Part shown: positions 6,291 to 63,419 of the stretch, one piece after another
Position numbering within the stretch: the first letter of the stretch is position 1
Layout: the number at the start of each line of letters is the position of its first letter
From: a virus
Length of the DNA stretch: 64,000 nucleotides
Reading direction: 5' to 3' (one strand)
Virus record (IMG/VR): IMGVR_UViG_3300036770_003738
Location: 1 to 64,000 of that record
Position numbers and translations under genes: made by a program
Notes under the pieces: generated by a model
What the model was told of the DNA's origin: nothing
What the model saw: the letters and a program-made list of their open reading frames with translations, nothing else
Database searches by the model: none

Positions 6291-7299
6291 TCTATTTCGA
6301 AAAGCAGCAATCTTCACTGACATTCACTTTGGACTCAAGTCAAACAGCCAACTTCACAACGAAGACTGTTTGGCTTTTGTAAAGTGGGCTACTGCCAAGG
6401 CCAAAGAAGAAGGCTGCGAAACTTGTTTGTTTTTGGGCGATTGGCACAACAACCGATCTACCCTGAACATCGTCACACTCAACTACAGCCTACAGGCCCT
6501 GGAGCATTTGAATGACAATTTTGAACGTGTGTATTTTATCCCTGGTAACCATGATTTATATTATCGCGATAAACGTGACATTCAAAGCGTGGAGTGGGCA
6601 AAGCACCTCCCTCGTATTCAAATCTGCAATGATTGGTTTAGCGACGGTAATGTCACTATTGCCCCTTGGCTATGTGGAGACGATCATAAGAAACTGGCCA
6701 AACTGAGTGGCCAGTACTTGTTTGGACACTTCGAATTGCCCGGATACCTGATGAACGCCATGGTGGAGATGCCCGATCATGGAGAAATTCAACGGGAAGA
6801 TTTAGCAGGATTTGAGCATGTATTCACCGGACACTTCCACAAGCGACAGACTAAAAAGAATATTACCTATATCGGTAATGCGTTCCCTCACAACTACGCA
6901 GACGCTGGTGACGACGAACGAGGTCTCACTGTGTTGGAATGGGGATCAGCGCCTGAGTTTCATGCTTGGCCTGCTCAACCAACGTACCGCGTCTTCGGGC
7001 TTGCAAATCTTATTGATAATGCACCATCTCTTCTCAAGCCCAAGATGCATGTTCGTGTAAATCTCGATATTGAAATCTCATACGAAGAAGCAGGGTTTAT
7101 CAAAGATAACTTTGTGGCTCAATATCAATTGAGAGAAATGGCTTTGATTCCCAACAAGACATCGGGGGTAAGTGAAGATCTTGCACCCGGAGATGTCAAG
7201 TTTGAGTCAGTAGATCAAATCGTGACAGACCAACTTACCAACATTGAGTCTGAGTTCTACGACAACAAACTCTTGCTAAAAATTTACCAAACTCTATGA
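6283..7299 (+). CDS. gp47: Recombination endonuclease subunit (Mre11/SbcD-like)
   Basis: Metallophosphoesterase motifs DIHFG, GDWH, GNHD, GHFE, GHFH. Confidence 0.92.
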   Translation: MSNLFRKAAIFTDIHFGLKSNSQLHNEDCLAFVKWATAKAKEEGCETCLFLGDWHNNRSTLNIVTLNYSLQALEHLNDNFERVYFIPGNHDLYYRDKRDIQSVEWAKHLPRIQICNDWFSDGNVTIAPWLCGDDHKKLAKLSGQYLFGHFELPGYLMNAMVEMPDHGEIQREDLAGFEHVFTGHFHKRQTKKNITYIGNAFPHNYADAGDDERGLTVLEWGSAPEFHAWPAQPTYRVFGLANLIDNAPSLLKPKMHVRVNLDIEISYEEAGFIKDNFVAQYQLREMALIPNKTSGVSEDLAPGDVKFESVDQIVTDQLTNIESEFYDNKLLLKIYQTL

Positions 7300-8117
7300 T
7301 TTATTGTGTCTGGTATCCCAGCGGAGGATTTGGACACTTTGTTAATGCAATATTATCATTGTACGGAAATAATTTTGCAAGGCCTAACAAAGTATTGTCT
7401 TTTTCTAATACTGGAGATAGTCATGACCTAGATTTGGTGGTCCCTAAATATCTACATAATCAGTGGCCCATAAACTTCAATTTTTCCAGGTCTACAAATT
7501 ATTCTGTGTTGATTGACAACGGAATCAATGATGAGAGTATCAAATTCAAATCAGTGTTTCCCGAATCAACAGTTATTAAAATTTGCTACACAGATGTCAG
7601 TTGGCCAATTATTGCTCGTACCATGGTAGAAAAAGCAATGAGTAGCAAAATTGAAACTATATTAACTACCGACGCATGGCATGGCAACGAAGACTGGGTA
7701 CGAAGGGAAAAATATTTCTTGTATCTCAGAGATCATGAGTTAAGATCAGCGTGGCGCATTAATGATATCAGCGATCGTTCGATTTTTGTTGATCAAATGT
7801 GTCAGTACCAAACCATGTTTGATGCTGTTAATACTATCGCAGTTACTGAATCTTTTGAAAATGTCTGGAAACAGTGGAGAACTGCAAACGACGTGTATAT
7901 TTTGCCAGTAGAAATTGCTCAAAAAATTATCAGCTTTGTCAAAAACAAAACGTCTTTTGATCTAAGTCACATCACAGATGTATGGACACAATCAGTTGTG
8001 TATTATTTCATTCAACTGGAGTTTGGTATCGAAGTCCCACACAATGATTATTCAAACTGGTTTACAAATGTTGCTGATATTAATAAAATGTTAAGTAATC
8101 ACGGAGTTAGCACTTGA
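7296..8117 (+). CDS. Hypothetical protein (possible P-loop/sulfotransferase-like fold) inserted between gp47 and gp46
   Basis: 273-aa AT-rich ORF overlapping both neighbours; N-terminal YPSGGFGHF glycine loop. Confidence 0.6.
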   Translation: MIYCVWYPSGGFGHFVNAILSLYGNNFARPNKVLSFSNTGDSHDLDLVVPKYLHNQWPINFNFSRSTNYSVLIDNGINDESIKFKSVFPESTVIKICYTDVSWPIIARTMVEKAMSSKIETILTTDAWHGNEDWVRREKYFLYLRDHELRSAWRINDISDRSIFVDQMCQYQTMFDAVNTIAVTESFENVWKQWRTANDVYILPVEIAQKIISFVKNKTSFDLSHITDVWTQSVVYYFIQLEFGIEVPHNDYSNWFTNVADINKMLSNHGVST

Positions 8118-10233: not shown

Positions 10234-10662
10234 ATGACATGGATATACAACAATCAACCAGTAGAGGAACTACCCGAAGACTGCGTGGGCTTTGTGTATC
10301 TCATCGTCAACAATCTCAATCAACGCAAATACATAGGCAAAAAACTAGCAAAATTCTCCAGGACTACGCAACGTACAGTCAAATTAAAGAACGGCACCAA
10401 AAAAAAGAAAAAAATCCGCACTAAGGTTGACAGCGACTGGCGCGACTACTACGGTAGCAGCCCCGAGCTTTCCCGAGATGTGGAGCAGTTAGGCAAAGAA
10501 AACTTTACCAGAGAAATATTATTTTATTGTAAAAGCAAAGCCGAATGCAGTTACATCGAAGCTAGAGAACAATTCACCAACAAAGTATTAGAATCAAAGG
10601 ACTGGTACAACGGGCACATACAAGTGCGTGTACACGGCAGTCATATTATAGGCAAACTTTAA
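10234..10662 (+). CDS. GIY-YIG (Seg-like) endonuclease, catalytic domain only
   Basis: GFVYLI...KYIGKK motif, YYGSS, FTREIL, E-x-R-E-Q, WYN; Lys-rich insertion KLKNGTKKKKKIRTK. Confidence 0.85.
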   Translation: MTWIYNNQPVEELPEDCVGFVYLIVNNLNQRKYIGKKLAKFSRTTQRTVKLKNGTKKKKKIRTKVDSDWRDYYGSSPELSRDVEQLGKENFTREILFYCKSKAECSYIEAREQFTNKVLESKDWYNGHIQVRVHGSHIIGKL

Positions 10663-10669
10663 GCAGTTA

Positions 10670-11112
10670 AGACTCGCACAGGTCAATCCCGTGTGCCGAA
10701 CAGAAGAAACCTGGATCTAGGATCGCAGGGAACCGAAGCCTTGCCGCTGCTAGCAAGCACTCAATCACTATCCTTAACAGGACGAAGATCGCTAATTGCC
10801 GCGGTTTGATTGTTTGAACAGAATTTTAAAGGCTAAAAAGACGTACGATCGCTCGTACACTTTATACTACCCAGTTAGCGTTGGGGAGTATAAACGCCGT
10901 TGTTATAAGACGCAACTCGAGGTACCGGACAACCGCCTCTGTAATCGTTGTAACGCTAAGTGACTTGCCCGACTCGGATGAAGTTATTTTCTTTGCCCTG
11001 CGCGGGCAAAGTGTGACCATAAGATCTGGATGAATACTTAGATCGCTTCGCTCTTGTTAATCAGTTTGTTGTTGAGCGATAGCGAAAACAACAGATGTAC
11101 GAAGTACATCTT
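10670..11112 (+). ncRNA. Candidate large structured non-coding RNA (or structured ssDNA element); family not recognised
   Basis: About 450 bp with no ORF in an otherwise tightly packed genome. At least 10 helices are visible, plus an 8-nt loop-distal complement (10875-82 with 10952-59). Strand is inferred from the upstream gene. Confidence 0.6.
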
Positions 11113-11118
11113 AAAGTG

Positions 11119-11454
11119 TTATAAGTTTTGATCTGGCCAATCTCTAAACAGTGCATGCTGAATGTCTCCAGCAACAAACTGATTAAATGACTTGTGTTTT
11201 GTCTCTAGCTCACCTTCTAGTGGTGCCACTCGTTTGAAAGCACTATCCATTTGCCCCATGTCTTTAAATTCCATAAGAATCATCCATTCGGGCATGTCTG
11301 CTATTGAACGAAATCCCATCTTGCATCGCGTGATGCGATAGCTTTCCATCTTGCCTTCTGAGATCAAGTGATCAAAAAAACTTTTCATGCCGTTGACCCA
11401 GTCAAGATCTGAAATGTCGCCAGATTTGTTGGCCCAGATTGTATAAATGTCCAT
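11119..11454 (-). CDS. Small dimeric alpha/beta-barrel-like protein (resembles DUF6614)
   Basis: Likely start MDIYTIW at 11454 with AGGAG SD; YRITRCKMGF..PEW.ILMEF..M.Q.D.AF pattern; family recalled from memory. Confidence 0.6.
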   Translation of the reverse strand: MDIYTIWANKSGDISDLDWVNGMKSFFDHLISEGKMESYRITRCKMGFRSIADMPEWMILMEFKDMGQMDSAFKRVAPLEGELETKHKSFNQFVAGDIQHALFRDWPDQNL

Positions 11455-11455
11455 A

Positions 11456-12598
11456 TTAACTCCTGTTTGGAAAAAAATCTTGTTGAACACCTTCGCGGTG
11501 TAAATCCGATGTTACACAATGAATGCCGCCGTCCCAAAAGTATCTATGTCTAAATGGGACAATGTGCGTGGTGATACCATAACGTTCTAGCGCATCAAAT
11601 ACTTGTTTATTATAGTTAAACACTATAACATTCTTGGGATCAATGATTAACATATTGACATCGAATACCGTTTCTTCAACATAACCAGTCCAATGGTCCA
11701 ACCATGTTTCAACAGTATCTACTACTGCTTGGTCGTACTCAAATCCAGGTATCCACCACTTGCCTCGATTTTTCTTTTTAAGATCTAGAAAAGGTACAAT
11801 TTTTTCCCAACTTTGGCCTGGTAGATAAATTACTTCCCAATCAGGAAAAGTGTCAGCATAAGTTGGTACATCTTGTAAACTTATAATTAATCCAGGAGTA
11901 ACAGGACAATATACAGCATCGCTGTGTCCGCCTGTATTGATAATATGATTCCTTGTTGTTGTAAATTCAGTGTTGATAAAAGATTCTAGTGGCCTGGTGT
12001 TGTAATTCTGACTTGGTGTTCCAAAATATAAATCTTTGCCAATTCGAGTCATGTTTGCACCGCCAATGACCTCGTATAAATTGCTAGGGGCTTGATTAAC
12101 AATATTTCCTTTGCTTTTTATTCTATTAATAATATCAGTGTAACACCCGTTGTCAATACATAACTTTCTCTGAAAGTTATGTATTGTTAAACATTCATCG
12201 ATGATTCTCTGTGGTAACTGATCAAATTCTTCTATGGTGTTGCACTCTGGCCACGATGGGTCTTTAACATTGCTGTAAAAATTTTTAAAAGGTATGTAAT
12301 GATTAAAATAACATTTATTATCTATCATTACACTAACGTCTCTGGGAGTCATCGGGGGTGCGACAAACTTTCCGTCAACAAATGTTTCTTTGGGTAAGTT
12401 AGGTCGTAATACTTCTACACCAAAACTTTCTAGTTTTTTAATAATTTCTTGATAATCTTCTTCTGTTTCAATGGCTATTCTTTCAAATAAAGATCTAACG
12501 TGTGGAACTTTAATCCACGAATAAAACTCTGGAGGATAACTACGTCCTACCACACATACTTTTAGTGGGTCCCAGTGCTGATGTACTGAAAATGTCAT
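11456..12598 (-). CDS. Amidinotransferase (pentein superfamily; glycine/inosamine-phosphate amidinotransferase-like)
   Basis: WDPLK..VVG N-terminus, LESFGVEVLRP, TPRD, GHSD, VNML, GGIHC.T.D..R C-terminal motif. Confidence 0.85.
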   Translation of the reverse strand: MTFSVHQHWDPLKVCVVGRSYPPEFYSWIKVPHVRSLFERIAIETEEDYQEIIKKLESFGVEVLRPNLPKETFVDGKFVAPPMTPRDVSVMIDNKCYFNHYIPFKNFYSNVKDPSWPECNTIEEFDQLPQRIIDECLTIHNFQRKLCIDNGCYTDIINRIKSKGNIVNQAPSNLYEVIGGANMTRIGKDLYFGTPSQNYNTRPLESFINTEFTTTRNHIINTGGHSDAVYCPVTPGLIISLQDVPTYADTFPDWEVIYLPGQSWEKIVPFLDLKKKNRGKWWIPGFEYDQAVVDTVETWLDHWTGYVEETVFDVNMLIIDPKNVIVFNYNKQVFDALERYGITTHIVPFRHRYFWDGGIHCVTSDLHREGVQQDFFPNRS

Positions 12599-13029
12599 TC
12601 TAGTGGTCCTAGTATTTCAAAGCCTGCCATGTCAGCTTTGTACAAGTGTGCTTGTTCAAGATACAGGTACTTAAATCCGCGAGCTTTGTAGATTGCACAC
12701 TCAGTTTGTAAACTTTCTATACCCAGTCGCATTTTGGGTCTGTGGTAGTTCCAAGCAAACTGATCGCATAATGCATTGTGATCGTCATAGCGTTTAATCA
12801 AACTGAACGCTACCAGTCGATCTTGATCGTAGTAGCCAATTACATCGGTCATTGGATCAGTGTAACGACTGTCAAACATAGGCATTACTGATGCAAAGTG
12901 TTTGTAGATGCAGTAGTCTCTGTAAATTTTATTAAGGGCAGTAATGTCAGGATCACGCAGATATTCCCACTTAACGCTGGCGCAATAATTGGTCTTGCTC
13001 AAATCAATTCTAGCAAACTGATAGCTCAT
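12595..13029 (-). CDS. Arginyl/leucyl-tRNA-protein transferase C-terminal (ATE1/Bpt-like GNAT) domain protein
   Basis: GYY...LVAFS...W.Y..PK.RLG..S...E......GFKYLYL......YK motif typical of ATE_C. Confidence 0.65.
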   Translation of the reverse strand: MSYQFARIDLSKTNYCASVKWEYLRDPDITALNKIYRDYCIYKHFASVMPMFDSRYTDPMTDVIGYYDQDRLVAFSLIKRYDDHNALCDQFAWNYHRPKMRLGIESLQTECAIYKARGFKYLYLEQAHLYKADMAGFEILGPLE

Positions 13030-13529
13030 TGGCGTGGATCTTCCCTATGCTGAAACAATGCTTGCAGGTATTCTTCGGGCCAAGCATCGTAAAAGCCCTT
13101 ACGTGCCACCAACTTAGCCTTGGCATTCAAGTCACTTAGGCCTTGCACTAGCGCCATTGCATACTTGCCTTGATTCATAATAACACCGTTTACATCTTCT
13201 ACATCAGCAGGGTGATCTTCTAGTGCTAGTATATCGTTGCGCAGTAAAAATTCTTGATTGGCGCTATTGATGCTGGCAGCAAACAGTTCATGTGGCCATT
13301 CCGCAGGGTCGTAAACATAGATAACAACTTCACGATCGCCCATGCCCATACGTGCTCGGTTCTTGAGATCATAATAAGGATCTACACCCAAGAACACAGA
13401 ATAAGTGTGCTTTAGCCGTGCTGACCTAGCATAAGGACAAGGACTCCAGCCGCCTAGTGCAGGATGCGGCACCTCCAGGAAGTTGACCATCCAGGCTTCA
13501 ATATCTTTTTTAACTTGTTCAATGTCCAT
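13026..13529 (-). CDS. Hypothetical protein with HP.LG...CPYA motif (DUF1415/DUF6875-like)
   Basis: PHPALGGWSPCPYA and DHP motifs; TAATG and ATGA overlaps with its neighbours. Confidence 0.55.
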   Translation of the reverse strand: MDIEQVKKDIEAWMVNFLEVPHPALGGWSPCPYARSARLKHTYSVFLGVDPYYDLKNRARMGMGDREVVIYVYDPAEWPHELFAASINSANQEFLLRNDILALEDHPADVEDVNGVIMNQGKYAMALVQGLSDLNAKAKLVARKGFYDAWPEEYLQALFQHREDPRQ

Positions 13530-13765
13530 TAGAAGAATGGTAGTTTTGACTTCTTGGTTGTGTCAAGATTATCTTTGATGATGTTGGAAATCATACTGCG
13601 CTCTTTGCTGCTCAATGCTAAAACTTGATCGTATGTAATACCGCCTCGCATGTACCAAGACATTTTTAAACTTTCTTGCCGAATGCTTTCGGCCTCCTTT
13701 TCCATACTGTCTACCAGTGCTGCAATTTGCTCAGCATCAGAGGTCAGGAGGCGGGTGCGAAAAAA
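13529..13765 (-). CDS. Baseplate/tail assembly chaperone C-terminal part (gp51-like), probably expressed by -1 frameshift from the upstream ORF
   Basis: WYMRGGITY...LS..ER motif; its frame overlaps the end of the upstream ORF across a T TTT TTC heptamer. Confidence 0.6.
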   Translation of the reverse strand, partial: FFRTRLLTSDAEQIAALVDSMEKEAESIRQESLKMSWYMRGGITYDQVLALSSKERSMISNIIKDNLDTTKKSKLPFF

Positions 13766-14586
13766 CTCGTCATGTCCAATGTCATTGGTTGATCGTATTG
13801 GTGATCGCATTCGATACATTGAATTTTAAGCGGTTTAATTTCAGAGTCTAATCTTAGATTAATAACTTTGTCACGAATTTCGTTGAACAATGCCCTGTCG
13901 CAGTTCTTTAAGAAGTCTTCTATAAACTCAGGCTCACTTACTATAGCTTGCGGAGTACGAATACTTTGAATACTCCATTTAAGCGACTTGACTGTGAGCT
14001 CTGTGATTTTTTGCAGTACTTGATGCATGCGAGCTAGCTTTTCTTGTTCAGGTAAATCGCTAGCAGGCAAGAGCTGCATGACTTTTTGTTCTTCGAACTG
14101 TGCCTGGTTAGTTTCGTTTTGTGTTTTATAGGTAATCGGTTGAAATGTGATCGTAAGGTCACCGTGGCTAAGAGGCTCAGCAAAGCTAGGGCACTTCAAT
14201 TGATCTAGCACATTACGTAAATCAATGGTGTAATCAGACTCGGTGCCGCAGTTTGGGCACTTGCTACCAATTTCTAAATCGTGCCCGTAGCTAGCAATGC
14301 GAATAGCAGTAAGTATTGCATTGATATCAGGCCCGGGTGCCGCCCATGCATTTTTGATGTTCGGAATACAGCTTTGAATAACGTTAATCACAGCTTGTCC
14401 GTTAAACAGTGCATCGGGTGTTCGGTAAGTGATTTCGTCAATGGCAGTCATTGGCAGTACAGGCAACTCACCGTTTGCGGGCATGTCCAAGCTGCCAGCG
14501 GCCCAATGCGCACCGCCAGAAGGCAAACGCAAATATATTGCAGGTTGTCTAAAATATTGACGTAGCGGGTTAGCAATTTGGTTCAT
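13744..14586 (-). CDS. Baseplate hub assembly chaperone (T4 gp26-like)
   Basis: LPSGG, PMTA.DE, IRIASYG, CPNC and CIEC zinc motifs, C-terminal FF; divergent from the tape measure gene. Confidence 0.75.
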   Translation of the reverse strand: MNQIANPLRQYFRQPAIYLRLPSGGAHWAAGSLDMPANGELPVLPMTAIDEITYRTPDALFNGQAVINVIQSCIPNIKNAWAAPGPDINAILTAIRIASYGHDLEIGSKCPNCGTESDYTIDLRNVLDQLKCPSFAEPLSHGDLTITFQPITYKTQNETNQAQFEEQKVMQLLPASDLPEQEKLARMHQVLQKITELTVKSLKWSIQSIRTPQAIVSEPEFIEDFLKNCDRALFNEIRDKVINLRLDSEIKPLKIQCIECDHQYDQPMTLDMTSFFAPAS

Positions 14587-14594
14587 GTGGCACC

Positions 14595-14602
14595 TATAAA
14601 TA
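14595..14602 (+). promoter_or_regulatory. T4 late promoter TATAAATA for the tape measure gene
   Basis: Perfect T4 late consensus upstream of the ATG at 14628. Confidence 0.75.
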
Positions 14603-24329: not shown

Positions 24330-25478
24330 TTATACCTTGTACCACGAGAGATATTGGGTGATTTTTTCAGTCACACTTGTCCAGTCTCCTCTAACAGGTT
24401 GTCTGAACAATCGTGCGCTCACATACCAAGGGCTAGAATCCCGACCCAACAACCAGCGCCAGTCTGTAGCATAGGCATTGAGCATGAGCCAAGCAGGACG
24501 GCCTAGCGCACCTGCGAGATGCGTAATAGCAGTGTCCACGCTGATCACCACATCTAGGTTCATCATGAGTGCAGCAGTGTCAGCAAAGCTTTGCACAGCA
24601 CCAGGATAACGACTTACACCGGCGTCAGCTAGTGCTTGTTCTTCTTCAGGCTCGGCATCTATTTGTAGGTTGATCCACTCGTATTGCGGATTCTTCCGGA
24701 TCATGTCTAGCATGGTTTTAAAAGGCACACTCTTGTGTTGATTCAACCATGAATCACGACGCCCGCTCCAGCTAAAGCCTACACGCATGCGAGTTTTTGG
24801 GCCTAGCTTTTGTTGCCATACCCGTACTTGATTAGCATCTGCGTTCAAATAGCTTTGTACCTGAGGCAAGTTTTCTACGGTAACACCTAGTATGCCCGGG
24901 ATGCTCATAATAGGAACCCAGGTATCAAACTCCCCAGGATCGTCTAAGTAAGTGCCAGTCCAGGCAATTATATCACTACGTCCTAGCAACGGTACTAGCC
25001 CGTCTGTGACTTGTAGTTTGATACGAGCACCCATCTGATGCAAGTTGTAGATGAATCTTGAAAACTGAATGTTGTCTCCATGACCTTGTTCACCTACAAC
25101 CAAGATTGTTTGGCCTTGCAAGCTTTCTCCGCGCCAACGAGGTTGCGAGTGCCGAGGTTCAGTACCAGCTAAGTGTTCGTACTCCCAACGAGTTTCGTAA
25201 GCTGGCCACCCTTGTTTGTAATCTCCTAACAACAAATGACACACAGCTAGATTGAAACGTGCAGTGATGTTTTTTGGATCTAGTACAGCAGCATGTTGCA
25301 AAAACGGAACGGCTCTGTTTGGATAGCCTAGTTCGCGCATGACATTGCCGTAGTTGTTGAATGCTGCAGCCGAATCGGGATCTTGCACAAATGCCATTGC
25401 ATAGCATTGCAGTGCCTTTTCGGGTTGTTGTGCAGCACGAAGCTGATTGCCTTGTTCGATTAGTTCGTTGGAATTCAT
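24330..25478 (-). CDS. TPR-repeat glycosyltransferase (GT9-like C-terminal domain)
   Basis: Three N-terminal TPRs, then EQGHGDNIQF and DVVISVDTAITHLAGALGRP, DWRW, SPWY...LFRQ. Start re-assigned to MNSNEL at 25478, just after TAAATA. Confidence 0.85.
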   Translation of the reverse strand: MNSNELIEQGNQLRAAQQPEKALQCYAMAFVQDPDSAAAFNNYGNVMRELGYPNRAVPFLQHAAVLDPKNITARFNLAVCHLLLGDYKQGWPAYETRWEYEHLAGTEPRHSQPRWRGESLQGQTILVVGEQGHGDNIQFSRFIYNLHQMGARIKLQVTDGLVPLLGRSDIIAWTGTYLDDPGEFDTWVPIMSIPGILGVTVENLPQVQSYLNADANQVRVWQQKLGPKTRMRVGFSWSGRRDSWLNQHKSVPFKTMLDMIRKNPQYEWINLQIDAEPEEEQALADAGVSRYPGAVQSFADTAALMMNLDVVISVDTAITHLAGALGRPAWLMLNAYATDWRWLLGRDSSPWYVSARLFRQPVRGDWTSVTEKITQYLSWYKV

Positions 25479-25526
25479 CAAGTATTTAAGGGGTGCAAAA
25501 CACAGTCTAGACATTTTTGCTAAATA

Positions 25527-25592
25527 TCTAGTCCGCAATACTGCGGCTTATGCTGAGATTAATACCCACAGCGTAGCGACTAGAACTCGCAG
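25527..25592 (+). promoter_or_regulatory. Structured 5' leader after late promoter TAAATA (25521-26)
   Basis: Hairpins ccgca/tgcgg, tatgctg/cagcgta and gcga/tcgc; alternative closing helix tctagtc/gactaga. Confidence 0.5.
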
Positions 25593-43000: not shown

Positions 43001-44043
43001 CACGAGGTGCAACATTTACACAATGGATCGAAGGCGCAAGCCGCAGCTTTACATCTAGTGCTGCTGCAAGTCACGACAGTTCAACCGGTGTAATATTGAT
43101 TTCTAACACCTGTACTCCATTAGTTAACCACTGGGGTAGTTCAGTAATCATGGATGGCAGCTTCGATGGCGACGAAGGCTATCAGTTCACATTCAACCGA
43201 ACTAACTATGGTTTACCAGGAACAATTGGCCAGAAGCAAACTGCTTTCTGTATGCGTCTTGCACCGAGTGTAAGTAACGGTATCATTGGAAATCTTGGCC
43301 AACGAGATTTGATCAATCGAGCACAGCTCACACTCAGCAACATGATTGTGAACATCACAGCAGGTCGTTACTTGGTTGAAGGTATTCTAAACCCTAGCAA
43401 CATTGATTCGGCTAACACTGTGTGGTCAGGACTCAACAATGCAGGTGGTGGCTACCAACCTAGCTTTACTGAGTTTTCAGTAGCGCCAATCTACACCGAT
43501 GATACCACAGGTGGTGTAACCGGTTCTTTATATGGATCCACAGGCGGTTTTGTTAAGAGTGGCACCAAGCAAACTTTTAGTAGTAATAGAACCTATCCTA
43601 ACTTAGCACCTATTAACGTTTCTAGTTCGGGCTCAGGATCTAACGTCACTGTGCAATTGACTAGGACTGGCACAACTTATACTAACAGTACAGTACAAAT
43701 TACTGTGCAAAACCCTGGTTCAGGTTATGCAATCGGCGACACACTAAAGATTCTAGGTAACGCTCTTGGCGGATCAACTCCATCCAACGACTTAGCACTT
43801 ACCGTAGCAGCTATTACAACTGAAATCTCAGGTGGTGAGCGCTTGTTTGCTGTACCAATTTCAACAACTAACTCAGGTACATTGGATTTGCGCTCAGTTA
43901 AACAGATTGGTACTAGTGCTATTCCTGGTACAGGAACTTTCCCCAACGGGCCAGAAATTCTAGCTGTGCAAATTACAGCACTAGCTACTGCAACAAACCC
44001 AACAGGTGAGATACAGTTACAGTTCCAGGAAAGTCAAGCTTAA
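40087..44043 (+). CDS. Large virion structural protein
   Basis: 1318 aa; LIDADFEYGLQ.TKW, HGL repeats, RQTKKYFRYQSGKG and YSWYGAG motifs seen in T4-like virion proteins. Confidence 0.7.
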   Translation: MARQRVYKYVFTPGTSGVGTIQVQGRYNLADFLAIYNTTDNISIYNFGDPAQGGTVSWSSSTISGLPTSYDGVTTLTLDADTSSMSASDKLSIFVEEQALEVQPWAFGMDAIGRNRVSNPEALIDADFEYGLQNTKWQNVSVNNNIPGFYEDFGADLLVQTNGYISLLAGDDLITSNVDTSVRLSNPGTPAWVANDYALLISQTQGNTTAFTSTYTTANVNSSAERLVTVSSTSSFAEDDNVLIIGRPTSGGTTISTSITSTATTTVVVANASAAGIVDGCYIIVLTDTAGVYEVMAVTNVSTNTLTVVRQSNRTNAGGANITTGNAVYVVASLEVSQIDEVTDGTTLQLQRGWYNIPALNSFASGSIVQKLSSNVELVEHTAVSTAVNGAQTISRGAYSTTALSAAGVGSPMIRMTGAFNATGNANIPEVAVNAPDHGLTAGNYVSALNMSNSNAEGVDIVASANTNNFGYYPRRTTGLAVGYPLNQTDTALRQAFPYTGADLDVVSIVSDAGTPSTITVTTTYAHGLVPGTPILVNLTAGTNTAYGEGSFIVISVPSTTTFTYTAKSGAAVSGSLEGIINVRSNATFLPRPFDGGVILGPGTPTHGASAIRQTKKYFRYQSGKGILFTSGTMLKPTFDISVLSADGTAVNSIITVTTDIEHGLNIGAIIAIQGVDTTGYTNTGYVVTSIVSDVSFTVQAQAELGSTNPDLAPQPRVNVTGWHGASIRAGIFDDQNGMFWECDGQSVNAVQRSSTFQVAGLVSVGVGSNLVTGDGVCRFQEQLNNGDVVVIRGMTHTVTSILDEARMTVVPTFRGVTNQNRVKMCLRQEIRVRQADFNIDPLDGTGPSGYTLDANKMQMLGVEYSWYGAGYVQWMIRGQNGNFVMAHRRPNNNANNEAYMRSGNLPARYEAVNETPISELNGAIDASQTTITLLDATYYPAASVTYPVYVMIDSEIIKYSGKSGNDLTGCTRGATFTQWIEGASRSFTSSAAASHDSSTGVILISNTCTPLVNHWGSSVIMDGSFDGDEGYQFTFNRTNYGLPGTIGQKQTAFCMRLAPSVSNGIIGNLGQRDLINRAQLTLSNMIVNITAGRYLVEGILNPSNIDSANTVWSGLNNAGGGYQPSFTEFSVAPIYTDDTTGGVTGSLYGSTGGFVKSGTKQTFSSNRTYPNLAPINVSSSGSGSNVTVQLTRTGTTYTNSTVQITVQNPGSGYAIGDTLKILGNALGGSTPSNDLALTVAAITTEISGGERLFAVPISTTNSGTLDLRSVKQIGTSAIPGTGTFPNGPEILAVQITALATATNPTGEIQLQFQESQA

Positions 44044-44477
44044 CGCGATACAAAATCCTGCTCAAGTAGCAGGATTTTGCTTTGTACAGCTTCGATATTG
44101 ACTGTGCTCCACAATCCGGGATGCATAGGACGCGGCCAAGTACCAGCATCGATCCAGGCCCACCCTAGGTGCTCGTGATTGAGCACAGGAGTAAACTCAT
44201 TAGCGACCACACATACCCAGGTGTGGTATTCGAATGCGCCATCAGCTGAAGTAAATTTTTCTAACGGTATTAGACGTTCGTATATAGGAAAGTTGCCTAG
44301 CTCTTCAATGCATTCGCGCTCCATGCTACCTAGCAAGGTTTCGCCAGCTTCTACCTTGCCACCAGGTAAACCCCAGACGCTGGGATTTTTGCTGTCATTG
44401 CGCAACAGGTACAGGTAACGTCCTGTGCTTTTTGAACGAAACCAAACACCGACTGCCTTCAAAGCACAATGCTCCAC
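44040..44477 (-). CDS. Nudix hydrolase
   Basis: Nudix box GG.VEAGET.....RE..EELG; true start is probably the TTG at 44462. Confidence 0.88.
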   Translation of the reverse strand: MEHCALKAVGVWFRSKSTGRYLYLLRNDSKNPSVWGLPGGKVEAGETLLGSMERECIEELGNFPIYERLIPLEKFTSADGAFEYHTWVCVVANEFTPVLNHEHLGWAWIDAGTWPRPMHPGLWSTVNIEAVQSKILLLEQDFVSR

Positions 44478-48407: not shown

Positions 48408-49307
48408 ATGCATGAGATTACAAACAAAGTTGATTTTTATATTACTAATGTTTGTAATCTCACCTGCGAAGGGTGCAACAGGTTCAACAATCACGATTTT
48501 CGAGGATGGCAACGCTGGAGTGATTATCGAGCACAGTACGAACAATGGGGTGAGTTGGTTCGATTAAAATCTGCAACTATCATGGGAGGCGAGCCTTTTT
48601 TGAATCCGACATTAGTGGATTGGATACAAGGAATCAATCGTATATTCGGCATTGACGTTCAAGTTCTCACTAACGGTACTAGGTTCAGACAGTCACAGCA
48701 CTTGTACGATGCAATGTTGTATCGTTCAACACGCACAAGAGCAATGAACCACATTGGAGTAAGTCTTCATAATCTTGCAGATCAAGAAGAAATACTTGAT
48801 AGTATTCGATCATTCTTTCCTGGCTCATTTAATGAGTACCCTAAAGGACATCTAGCAAACCGTTGGGGGTCAGACTGGTATTTTGTTGACAATAACGGAG
48901 TAATGGTCAATGTGTATGTTGTTAACAAATTTGTTAATTCGTCGGTGATCCCACAATGGCAAGTCAACGGCGGAATTAAAAAACAATACACACTACATAA
49001 TAGCGATCCAGTAGAGGCGCACCAGGCTTGCGCTTTTGCAAAATTTAAATCATATCATTTCATTCGTGGAAAATTGTACAAATGCGGTCCAGTAGCTCTC
49101 TTGCCCGAGTTTGATCAACAACATCAGCTTACAATAACTGATGCTGATAGAAATTTAATGAGTTCATATCAACCATTGTCAACTGACAACTTTGATCATT
49201 ACCACAAAGAATTTTTTGATCACATAGATAAGCCTATTTCACAATGTAAATTTTGCCCTACTGAGCCTAAATTCAGAATAATTGCACCGATTCGCAAAGG
49301 GCTGTAA
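48408..49307 (+). CDS. Radical SAM protein with C-terminal Cys cluster (Twitch/SPASM-like)
   Basis: CNLTCEGC, GGEP, TNG, G.LYKC, CKFCP. Confidence 0.85.
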   Translation: MHEITNKVDFYITNVCNLTCEGCNRFNNHDFRGWQRWSDYRAQYEQWGELVRLKSATIMGGEPFLNPTLVDWIQGINRIFGIDVQVLTNGTRFRQSQHLYDAMLYRSTRTRAMNHIGVSLHNLADQEEILDSIRSFFPGSFNEYPKGHLANRWGSDWYFVDNNGVMVNVYVVNKFVNSSVIPQWQVNGGIKKQYTLHNSDPVEAHQACAFAKFKSYHFIRGKLYKCGPVALLPEFDQQHQLTITDADRNLMSSYQPLSTDNFDHYHKEFFDHIDKPISQCKFCPTEPKFRIIAPIRKGL

Positions 49308-58474: not shown

Positions 58475-58837
58475 ATGAGCACAGTGAATGAAGTTAACAC
58501 AAACCTTGGACAAACTGTGCGGGTGTTTGATTCTTTTTATGCATTTGACGTAAATGTTCCAGCAGCAGAATATGATGTGGTGTTTAGTTTCTTTCAGAAA
58601 GAAATGACCACTCGCAAAGCTGCTGGCAACTTCACTGTGAGCCTGTTTAGAGTAGCACAAGAAACTGGAATCCCTCCACTGACGCTGCTGAGCCAGTTCC
58701 AAGGAACAGGGGCGGGCGTGTCCATGGATGTGCAGTTGGCCTACTACTTGAATCAGATTCGCAACCGTGCTACCTTGTTGGGTGTAGGAGTAGCTGTACA
58801 GCCCAACTATTATCCAGCTAGAGCAGTACTAGAATGA
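58475..58837 (+). CDS. Hypothetical protein
   Basis: 120-aa ORF tightly coupled within the tail operon. Confidence 0.7.
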   Translation: MSTVNEVNTNLGQTVRVFDSFYAFDVNVPAAEYDVVFSFFQKEMTTRKAAGNFTVSLFRVAQETGIPPLTLLSQFQGTGAGVSMDVQLAYYLNQIRNRATLLGVGVAVQPNYYPARAVLE

Positions 58838-59265
58838 GTCACTGGGCACAAGGCAACTACGACATTGTTAACCGTGCCAAGTATGTGGGCAAAGGCACGC
58901 CCAGATATCGTTCAGGCTGGGAACTTAGCTTCATGCGCTTTTGTGACACCAACGACAACATCCTGCAATGGGCCAGCGAAAGCATTGCTATTCCCTACAA
59001 GCACCCACTCACAGGCAAGATGACTCAGTACATTCCTGACTTCTTGATCACATATCGCACCAGAAACAACACTGTGCGAGCCGAGCTGATTGAGATCAAG
59101 CCCAAGAAACAAAGTGTGATTGAATCAAAAATGAGCAGCCGAGATCGGGCTGTGGTTGCAATCAACTATGCCAAATGGGACGCTGCAACCAAATGGGCTC
59201 AACGCAACGGCTTGAGCTTTAGAGTGATCACCGAAGATCAAATGTTCCACAACGGTCGAGGCTAA
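58834..59265 (+). CDS. gp4: Head completion nuclease (TnsA-like PD-(D/E)XK)
   Basis: YRS.WE..FM..CD.N..I..W.SE, Y.PDF, EIKP, N.AKW, F.V.TE. Confidence 0.88.
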   Translation: MSHWAQGNYDIVNRAKYVGKGTPRYRSGWELSFMRFCDTNDNILQWASESIAIPYKHPLTGKMTQYIPDFLITYRTRNNTVRAELIEIKPKKQSVIESKMSSRDRAVVAINYAKWDAATKWAQRNGLSFRVITEDQMFHNGRG

Positions 59266-62613: not shown

Positions 62614-62985
62614 ATGAGATCAAGAGAGTTTGTATCAGAGCAAAAAGTTGGCGACATTGGCAAACGCAAAAGTGTAGCCACAGTGGGTCTCAACAAGTTT
62701 AGAGATCAACAGTTTGCTGACCGTGTGTACGAACTCAATCGTGTGATGATGGCAGTAGCCACAACTGACGGAACTAATCCAGCAACTATTGACAGCGAGT
62801 CATGGGCAGGACGCAACAATATTGCTGCTCCGTATACCAAAGTTGAACAAGACATGCTGAAAAAAGCTTTTCAGGCAGTAGGTAGTCACCATGTGGATAT
62901 CAACAACGGTGACCTTGACTCAGAAGAACTACCGAGCACTAATACACAAAGTCCTGTAAAAGCATTCAAAGGTTATCCAAGATGA
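62614..62985 (+). CDS. Hypothetical protein (MR..EF..E N-terminus)
   Basis: 123-aa ORF coupled to its neighbours. Confidence 0.65.
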   Translation: MRSREFVSEQKVGDIGKRKSVATVGLNKFRDQQFADRVYELNRVMMAVATTDGTNPATIDSESWAGRNNIAAPYTKVEQDMLKKAFQAVGSHHVDINNGDLDSEELPSTNTQSPVKAFKGYPR

Positions 62986-63419
62986 AAAAACTTCTAGCAC
63001 TGTTGTTGCTGGCACCTGTCCTAGTCCTAGCACAACCTAAACAAAAACCTGGCGTGACTTATGACGCTGTGATCACACGAGTAATTGATGGTGACACAGT
63101 AGGTATCCAAGCCGCGTGGTTGCCGGCACCTCTCAAACCAGAACTCAGCATTCGTGTATTTGGTGTAGATACTCCTGAAAAAGGACACCGTGCACAGTGC
63201 GCCAGCGAAGATCAGCGCGGACAAGCAGCCACAGCGTTTACTAAACAAGCCGTTGCCAGCAGCCAAAAGCGACAGATCGTGCTCATGTCCTGGGACAAGT
63301 ATGGCGGCCGAGTATTGGGAGACGTGATTCTAGACGGCAAGAGCCTGCGCCAAGGACTGATTGCCAACGGGTTTGCTCGTGAATATTACGGCGAAGCCAA
63401 AACATCTTGGTGCCAATAA
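62982..63419 (+). CDS. Thermonuclease (SNase-like) with signal peptide
   Basis: VIDGDT, IR..GVDTPE, DKYG.R.L, L...G.A motifs; MKK plus hydrophobic stretch and VLA/Q cleavage-like site. Confidence 0.9.
   Translation: MKKLLALLLLAPVLVLAQPKQKPGVTYDAVITRVIDGDTVGIQAAWLPAPLKPELSIRVFGVDTPEKGHRAQCASEDQRGQAATAFTKQAVASSQKRQIVLMSWDKYGGRVLGDVILDGKSLRQGLIANGFAREYYGEAKTSWCQ

Follow-up and report, generated by a model that had tools for sequence, protein, structure and literature searches.

A phage gene cassette with a putative heme-enzyme, trimmed tRNA-transferase, and DUF6614 core and a movable amidinotransferase-family gene

The window analyzed here, 64,000 nucleotides long (positions 1 to 64,000 of the IMG/VR record IMGVR_UViG_3300036770_003738), corresponds to the structural region of a T4-like myovirus, where genes for the portal, the prohead protease, gp23, gp15, and the sheath are found, and belongs to an 84.6-kb viral contig with a completeness rating of about 25%. 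Its minus strand carries a cassette of four chained genes, referred to below as A, B, C, and D. Judging from family and fold assignments, this cassette is best described as a conserved core of a putative heme enzyme (A), a trimmed tRNA-dependent transferase (B), and a DUF6614 protein (D), together with a movable amidinotransferase-family gene (C). The four genes are located as follows.

Gene A, 13026..13529, minus strand: 167-residue PCP[YF]A-motif protein, a probable cysteine-ligated heme enzyme with a DUF6875 (P422)/AglA-like sandwich fold.
Gene B, 12595..13029, minus strand: 144-residue predicted ATE_C-only (GNAT) relative of aminoacyl-tRNA transferases, without ATE_N.
Gene C, 11456..12598, minus strand: 380-residue divergent amidinotransferase-family (pentein) protein; accessory, inserted gene.
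Gene D, 11119..11454, minus strand: 111-residue DUF6614 protein, the most conserved member of the set.

The products of these genes might constitute a phage enzyme module, with A and B as its core, D as a member in this lineage, and C as an optional addition, that carries out tRNA-dependent transfer followed by guanidine oxidation. The chances that this proposal is right appear about even. In such a module, host aminoacyl-tRNA would supply B with an aminoacyl group, most likely arginyl, for transfer to an amine other than an acidic protein N terminus. A, as a cysteine-ligated heme enzyme, would oxidize (probably N-hydroxylate) the attached guanidino or amino acid group, or its precursor. C, where present, would draw the amidino group from arginine and with it form or remodel an amine-borne guanidino group, and D would play an accessory role. 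Gene structure, family and fold assignments, and co-occurrence counts were computed; the donor amino acid, heme binding, and the order of the steps are what we infer. The arginine chemistry that a first-pass annotation of this DNA had seen as the theme of the cassette is strengthened, and extended to A, by the resemblance of A to the guanidine N-hydroxylase AglA; arginine, or guanidine, would be the common denominator of A, B, and C.

All four are real genes. Conserved homologues among metagenomic proteins number 3079 for B (at E ≤ 1e-3), 2539 for A, and likewise thousands for D, and 50 viral loci encoding relatives of C were confirmed. The loci seeded with B comprise the best 80 of at least 569 confirmed stretches and were counted only where the flank was long enough. 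A is present in 74 of the 74 such loci with at least 600 nucleotides upstream, a homologue of the 96-residue open reading frame (ORF) that precedes A in the window is present in 74 of the 74 with at least 1000 nucleotides upstream, and D is present in 59 of the 59 with at least 2000 nucleotides downstream. Full-length C is found in 8 of these last 59 loci and is absent from 51; one further full-length C occurs in a B-seeded locus with less flanking room. Where C is absent, D starts 2 to 5 nucleotides after the stop codon of B. Two more apparent matches to C in B-seeded loci were rejected, as they cover only residues 102 to 145 and lie inside another gene.

The 50 loci seeded with C give a complementary picture. 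A, B, and D accompany C in 23 of them, in the order A-B-C-D (14 loci) or A-C-B-D (9 loci), and in the other 27 none of A, B, or D lies in the flanks that were fetched. The neighbors of C there include an NAD-dependent epimerase, a DegT aminotransferase, glycosyltransferases, FolE/QueD, UvdE, a second pentein, and a tandem copy of C. C is therefore an optional, horizontally inserted accessory, as its presence in 8 of 59 loci, its foreign composition, its several positions, and its occurrence alone in 27 of 50 loci indicate; the stable unit in this lineage is A-B-D. Conservation of the whole four-gene set in relatives, as envisaged in the first-pass annotation, thus holds for A, D, and the hub genes, and fails for C. 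The G+C content of C is 35.9% (27.8% at third codon positions), compared to 46.4% for A, 40.9% for B, and 41.4% for D.

More distant loci point to A and B as the true core of the cassette and to a position next to tail genes as not essential for it. In locus L051, A-B-C, without D, lies between nrdB and mazG/glutaredoxin/phoH, an unrelated neighborhood, while L052 has the order gp26, 96-residue ORF, A, B, D. What the proposed coupling to tail-assembly genes amounts to is synteny with hub genes, which does not extend to L051. In the marine T4-like contigs L136 and L138, an A homologue with 31% identity follows gp26 and a small ORF and has as its immediate neighbor an ATE-like gene of full length, encoded on the other strand; L138 also carries a segE-like gene and a 278-residue pentein. 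D, a long form of B, and C are found together on L135, a contig of 2.4 kb. The locus search in viral contigs with query P0130 returned no locus, and that with query P0149 returned 2 loci. In 50,697 GenBank phage records, blastn with the cassette region gave no match, and neither did tblastn with B or D; tblastn with A gave four weak matches of 25 to 27% identity, and C matched four records, among them cyanophage S-SCSM2R (37.7% identity over residues 212 to 369).

The homology of B to ATE_C proteins is supported, despite a sub-threshold score, transitively through longer homologues. An exhaustive search of 1.84 billion representatives returned 125 matches at E ≤ 1e-3, longer proteins included. 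Of 29 longer homologues scanned (183 to 268 residues), 25 match ATE_C at E ≤ 1e-3, with 19 reaching the 25-bit cutoff, and full-length relatives retain an N-terminal part. A phmmer search of PDB sequences with B itself found nothing at E ≤ 10, while a profile of 29 B sequences has as its best PDB matches the ATE1 proteins of K. lactis (E = 0.0078) and yeast (E = 0.07). Against the NCBIfam arginyltransferase model B scores 16 bits, with a cutoff of 252. The AlphaFold (AF2) model of B has a predicted local distance difference test (pLDDT) score of 93.7, and the Foldseek list for it is headed by MprF (6lv0; 9.1e-6), the peptide synthases Sbb17/Sba18 (about 2e-5), and KlAte1 (7wg1; 3.7e-5, TMq 0.72). 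Ordinary acetyltransferases rank below the aminoacyl-tRNA-dependent transferases in this list. The earlier assignment of the 144-residue protein as ATE/GNAT-like passes both this structural test and that of transitive sequence homology.

Compared to ATE1 and Bpt, B has the same ATE_C GNAT core, seen in the aligned line '..GYY...LVA.S......QFAW.Y..P.L.LG..S...EC..YK..G..YLYLG....YK', but it is about 144 rather than about 230 to 500 residues long, lacks ATE_N entirely, and stays below the Pfam and NCBIfam cutoffs. The ATE1 residues described in PMC9351520 were mapped onto the B profile alignment with a chain offset of +4, confirmed on 4 of 4 identities. In this mapping, Ser273, Glu277, and Tyr303-Lys304 of klAte1, all kept in B, correspond to S106, E110, and Y130-K131, while the equivalents of Ser255 and Tyr289 differ, being Cys/Ala and Leu, respectively. 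Among 61 representatives, the residue at the Glu277 position is Glu in 19 of the 29 short and all 32 long ones, and that at the Lys304 position is Lys in 23 of the 29 short and 31 of the 32 long ones. Glu277 is described as required for binding the Arg of Arg-tRNA by ATE1, and the Leu-transferring Bpt as having Gln in its place (PMC9351520). Because this acidic residue of the Arg pocket is kept, the donor used by B is inferred to be a basic aminoacyl group, most likely arginyl.

The acceptor is a different matter. ATE_N is described as holding the pocket for acidic N termini, formed by Tyr25, Arg80, and Tyr87 (PMC9351520). Since this pocket is missing, the acceptor of B is unlikely to be an acidic protein N terminus, and classical N-degron tagging is unlikely as well. 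B begins 4 nucleotides inside the end of A, and this overlap leaves no room for an N-terminal extension.

Gene A codes for a probable cysteine-ligated heme enzyme, as judged mainly from its structural model. The motif SPCPYA is located at residues 29 to 34; Cys31-Pro32 is invariant and stands immediately ahead of a helix. PCP(Y/F)A, His106-Pro107, Tyr123, and Gln129 are invariant even in relatives with 26 to 31% identity. Weak matches to DUF6875 are found in 20 of 21 members of the A family (best E = 0.0011), and the atlas neighbors of A include clusters labeled DUF1415 and DUF6875. The AF2 model has a pLDDT of 94.9. A Foldseek search of the PDB with this model gave nothing at E ≤ 1e-3, and a profile search of PDB sequences with A gave only chance-level rows, AglA not being among them. 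In a wide VIA-align search of 48,161 chains, AglA (9ub3_A) is the sole chain with Z of at least 5: it aligns with 148 of the 167 residues of A at Z = 7.5 and a root mean square deviation of 3.8, the next chain having a Z of 4.1. This is a match at the level of fold, as the alignment output does not display a correspondence between Cys31 of A and Cys44 of AglA.

AglA is described as a thiolate-heme enzyme of the YqcI/YcgG family that has Cys44 as its ligand and N-hydroxylates the guanidine of AMPn-Arg (PMC12866846). DUF6875 has been renamed cytochrome P422 in a report that describes it as a thiolate-heme family whose heme is ligated by the Cys of an RxGxVCP motif (bioRxiv 10.64898/2025.12.11.692455). 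With the tryptophan hydroxylases of the P422 family A shares a length of about 170 residues, an early Cys-Pro, and the weak but consistent DUF6875 signal; it differs from them in its motif, GGW(S/P)PCP(Y/F)A, which has no Arg, in its sub-threshold Pfam score, and in that the P422 substrate-binding motifs were not recognized in it. No P422 structures are among the Foldseek and VIA-align fold matches. With AglA and other YqcI/YcgG proteins A has in common, according to its model, the "sandwich" fold with an N-terminal Cys, whereas it has no match to PF08892 and is nearer to DUF6875.

The closest parallel to the A-B pair is provided by argolaphos biosynthesis. AMPn-Arg is reported to form from AMPn and arginine in the presence of ArgRS, tRNA, and AglC, after which AglA hydroxylates the guanidine (PMC12866846), and a table of argolaphos clusters places a YqcI/YcgG protein beside GNAT "peptide aminoacyl tRNA ligases" (PMC8976061). 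The argolaphos pair is the only characterized system that joins both folds of A and B. Reading A and B as hydroxylase and transferase copies its logic, as AglC makes AMPn-Arg from Arg-tRNA. The two folds lie side by side in the phage just as in AglC plus AglA (the AlpF/AlpO-type GNAT plus AlpD of Streptomyces monomycini). The differences are that B is an ATE_C-type protein of 144 residues and not a Fem-like GNAT of 342 to 356 residues, that the phage genes are set beside hub genes, and that the parts of the argolaphos reports consulted name no counterpart of the C-type amidinotransferase or of DUF6614. No phosphonate genes (PEP mutase, etc.) are present among the scanned ORFs of the window and the next 20 kb. 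A small-molecule acceptor for B is favored, by analogy, because of the loss of ATE_N, the argolaphos precedent, and the matches to Sbb17/Sba18 and MprF.

C appears, from its sequence, to be an atypical, divergent member of the amidinotransferase family. The family assignment already made for this 380-residue ORF is confirmed by significant matches to four solved amidinotransferases, HsvA (4.7e-10), StrB1 (1.3e-8), AGAT (2.4e-7), and SxtG (4.9e-5), while the score against the Pfam ADI model is 17.5 bits, with a cutoff of 22.8. Cys361 (in GGIHCVT) and His225 (in GGHSD) align with StrB1 and are invariant in 19 of 19 aligned C sequences, as are Asp227, Asp87, Asp10, and Arg185. As in AGAT, StrB1, SxtG, and HsvA, there are an N-terminal WDPL, the catalytic His, the nucleophile Cys in GG(I/F)HC(V/A)T, and the guanidino-binding Asp residues; unlike in these enzymes, the triad Asp is lost, two large insertions are present (at about residues 105 to 175 and 260 to 305), and the gene is mobile among phages. 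In S-SCSM2R, ORF266, named a "glycine amidinotransferase," is reported from the proteome of purified virions (PMC12801897).

The first insertion of C contains a module of 40 residues (DPSWPEC...LP..I..EC; about residues 105 to 143, window 12170-12286). This module is also found, with 45 to 53% identity, in separate proteins of approximately 300 to 350 residues with no assigned function that are encoded beside C in other phages (L012:4626-5534, L024:4488-5534, and L034:1830-2819). What looked like a 540-nucleotide insert in some matches to C is not an intron but a neighboring gene that shares the module. Tandem or near-tandem C-type copies are seen at L036:4848-7121, in L038, and at L039:4471-7199, including jumbo contigs of 262 to 345 kb; the jumbo contigs with a duplicate C also carry a more canonical pentein of 306 residues that keeps the triad Asp.

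D matches the Pfam family DUF6614 with 76.8 bits (cutoff 25; E = 1.7e-21) and is 80 to 94% identical in related loci. Its atlas neighbors are all viral DUF6614 clusters, and the family appears to be mostly viral. Beyond the DUF6614 match, the alpha/beta-barrel fold earlier assigned to D is left with a weak match to coproheme decarboxylase (E = 0.12), and the profile search of PDB sequences yields one row, with an E value of 1.1. None of the 15 candidate fusions of D joins it to C; two of the 15 are longer D proteins, each on a single contig, one with a TAT-signal label and the other with a TPR label. A DUF6614 ORF of another phage is reported to have an anti-Druantia phenotype (bioRxiv 10.1101/2024.04.14.589459).

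The cassette is the distal part of a longer chain of minus-strand genes, which includes the following features.

gp26-like baseplate hub gene, 13744..14586, minus strand: 280 residues, first in the chain; Pfam T4_baseplate PF12322 8.9e-15, PHROG 150 "baseplate hub" 4.7e-16.
96-residue ORF, 13529..13819, minus strand: TAATG overlap with the start of A; no family match.
Terminator-like hairpin, 11093..11111, minus strand: directly after D, with an 8-pair stem and then GTTGTTTTCG; a consensus match only.

The 96-residue ORF and A overlap in TAATG, A and B as well as B and C overlap in ATGA, and C and D are separated by a single nucleotide (TAA-t-ATG) with AGGAG ahead of it, so that every junction reads as previously claimed, and the overlaps read from the sequence likewise chain the cassette translationally to the hub genes on the same strand. 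The ORF listing gives a GTG at 11490 as the start of D (123 residues); the ATG at 11454 is preferred because it fits the 1-nucleotide gap and because the DUF6614 match covers the longer form only from residue 13 onward. The hairpin after D is likely, as a consensus match, to mark the end of the transcription unit. As for the placement of the cassette directly downstream of gp26-like and gp51-like genes, the former identification is backed by Pfam and PHROG, and homologues of the gp26-like gene are located upstream of the cassette in related loci; the latter is left unverified, as the 96-residue ORF has no match in Pfam, PHROGs, or NCBIfam. Late timing of the cassette can only be presumed: the T4 late-promoter word TATAAATA occurs 2 times in the window, with 2.2 expected, and is not found upstream of the cassette on the minus strand. 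One copy of TATAAATA is located on the plus strand at 14595-14602, 26 nucleotides upstream of an 897-residue, VanY-domain-containing tape-measure/gp29-like gene; there is none ahead of the divergent gp26 operon. No tRNA genes are present in the window or on the whole 84.6-kb contig. Convergent to the cassette is a SegE-type GIY-YIG homing endonuclease gene (10234-10662, plus strand; Pfam SegE_GIY-YIG, 7.6e-34), whose best PHROG, 447, is oddly labeled "NAD synthetase" and whose homologues occupy the same place in most related loci.

A number of observations count against a module of tRNA-dependent transfer and guanidine oxidation. At the level of single proteins, the Pfam ATE_C score of B is 16.9 bits (E = 0.0098), below the cutoff of 25; ATE_N is matched neither by B nor by any of its 29 longer homologues; and Lys131 is replaced by Met or Gln in some members. 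In A, the DUF6875 match, over residues 8 to 44 including the Cys, reaches 16 bits with a cutoff of 24.5, and PF08892 (YqcI_YcgG) matches nothing on the entire 84.6-kb contig at E ≤ 10. The Z value of 7.5 for AglA is below 8, the caution line of the tool. R35 and R38, the basic residues after the Cys, are lost in distant relatives, and the invariant His106 could, going by conservation, mean Cys-His chemistry rather than heme. In C, the residue aligned with Asp179 of StrB1, which we take to be the third member of the triad, is Gly179 ("VIGGAN" versus "VFDAAN"); the corresponding column of the C family has N/S/P/H/Q/T/G, and Asp is seen only in the separate 306-residue penteins of jumbo phages. 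At the level of gene neighborhoods, besides the absence of C from 51 of 59 loci, C is often accompanied by sugar or 7-deazaguanine-type genes instead of the cassette, L137 has a long B homologue with no A nearby, and HMO-2011 and CRP-810 have A-like genes with no B nearby. Finally, the 84.6-kb contig, about 25% complete, shows no ferredoxin or reductase partner. A, B, and C each seem to belong to, or border on, a known superfamily, and none is a regular member: B lacks ATE_N and fails the cutoff, C lacks the triad Asp, and A fails both Pfam cutoffs.

Some of the same evidence can be read in other ways. In the eukaryotic Arg/N-degron pathway, cysteine oxidation precedes arginylation, and by analogy B might attach Arg, or a different residue, to a protein of the virion or the host, with A oxidizing a residue before or after, to produce a posttranslational modification or a degradation tag. 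The homology of B to protein arginyltransferases with the Glu277 and Lys304 equivalents kept, the co-orientation and chaining of A with gp26 and the 96-residue ORF (74 of 74 loci, and likewise in the distant L136 and L138), and the report of the C-like ORF266 of S-SCSM2R in purified virions (PMC12801897) would all fit a protein target. However, B is without the ATE_N acceptor pocket for acidic N termini, the cassette in L051 is away from tail genes, Sbb17/Sba18 and MprF, which are small-molecule and lipid aminoacyl transferases, outrank ATE1 among the fold matches of B, and a small molecule is the product of the one characterized system in which a tRNA-dependent GNAT is paired with an AglA-type enzyme. 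A protein target for B seems rather unlikely. Quite unlikely, too, is that A-B(-D) is a viral system that arginylates a macromolecule (a protein of the baseplate hub, the tape measure, or the host, or a component of the envelope) from host Arg-tRNA, with subsequent N-oxidation by the heme enzyme and a mobile amidinotransferase that extends the chemistry.

The genes might also share no pathway at all. The site after the hub genes would then be a hotspot of unrelated accessory genes, each acting separately, and C would be an amidinotransferase with a task of its own, the modification of amino sugars or polyamines. That C is optional (8 of 59) and compositionally foreign, that it stands alone in 27 of 50 loci, beside NAD-epimerase, DegT aminotransferase, glycosyltransferase, FolE/QueD, and UvdE genes, that HMO-2011 and CRP-810 have A-like genes by themselves, and that a homing-endonuclease-like segE gene is next door are all in keeping with such a hotspot. 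It does not account for the adjacency of A and B across two gene orders, in a second neighborhood (L051), and at 23 to 31% identity with inverted orientation (L136 and L138), for the presence of D in 59 of 59 loci with room, or for the reassociation of C-like and B-like genes in at least three arrangements (the window type, L051, and L135/L138), and is judged distinctly unlikely. Very improbable is a module that modifies phage DNA or a nucleotide precursor, with aminoacylation or amidination of a base to guard against host nucleases. Mom of phage Mu, a GNAT-type enzyme that modifies phage DNA bases, offers a precedent, the L051 set lies among the nucleotide-metabolism genes nrdB, mazG, glutaredoxin, and phoH, and C adjoins FolE/QueD-type genes in L004; but hallmark genes of the known base hypermodification pathways were not found beside the cassette in the window, and A, B, and C gave no fold or sequence match to a DNA-modifying enzyme.

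An ORF of 273 residues with no family match and a G+C content of 35.6% (7296-8117, plus strand) is located between the gp47-like (Metallophos) and gp46-like (SMC/AAA_23) recombination nuclease genes and seems to be a further insertion. The contig has two radical-SAM genes, of which one encodes a SPASM domain, at 48408-49307 (plus strand) of the window and at L147:1098-2258 (G000 65098-66258). The last 20 kb of the contig encode a SAM synthetase (L147:10070-11251), an FkbM methyltransferase, a cytidylyltransferase/cupin protein, and a GT8 glycosyltransferase. Amid the structural genes are accessory genes for a TPR and heptosyltransferase-like protein (24330-25538, minus strand), a NUDIX hydrolase (44040-44477, minus strand), a TnsA-like endonuclease (58834-59265, plus strand), and a staphylococcal-nuclease homologue (62982-63419, plus strand).

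Nonribosomal aminoacyl-tRNA-dependent transferases are rare, and searches of open-access papers and preprints yielded no account of an ATE-like transferase in a phage or of an A-B-C-D cassette. Here, a trimmed ATE-type enzyme is predicted beside a probable small thiolate-heme enzyme, of a class recognized only recently, and the A-B pair is found in hundreds to thousands of contigs of uncultured aquatic T4-like phages. The core module is small, consisting of three proteins of 111 to 167 residues. If a macromolecule is what is modified, tRNA-dependent and oxidatively tailored modification would be of a kind that viruses are not known to have. If the module indeed combines tRNA-dependent transfer with guanidine oxidation, abundant lake and marine phages would divert charged host tRNA into tailoring reactions in which arginine-like groups are made or attached late in infection. 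Such metabolism or modification would be of a new kind for viruses, and compact enzymes for guanidine chemistry would become available from it.

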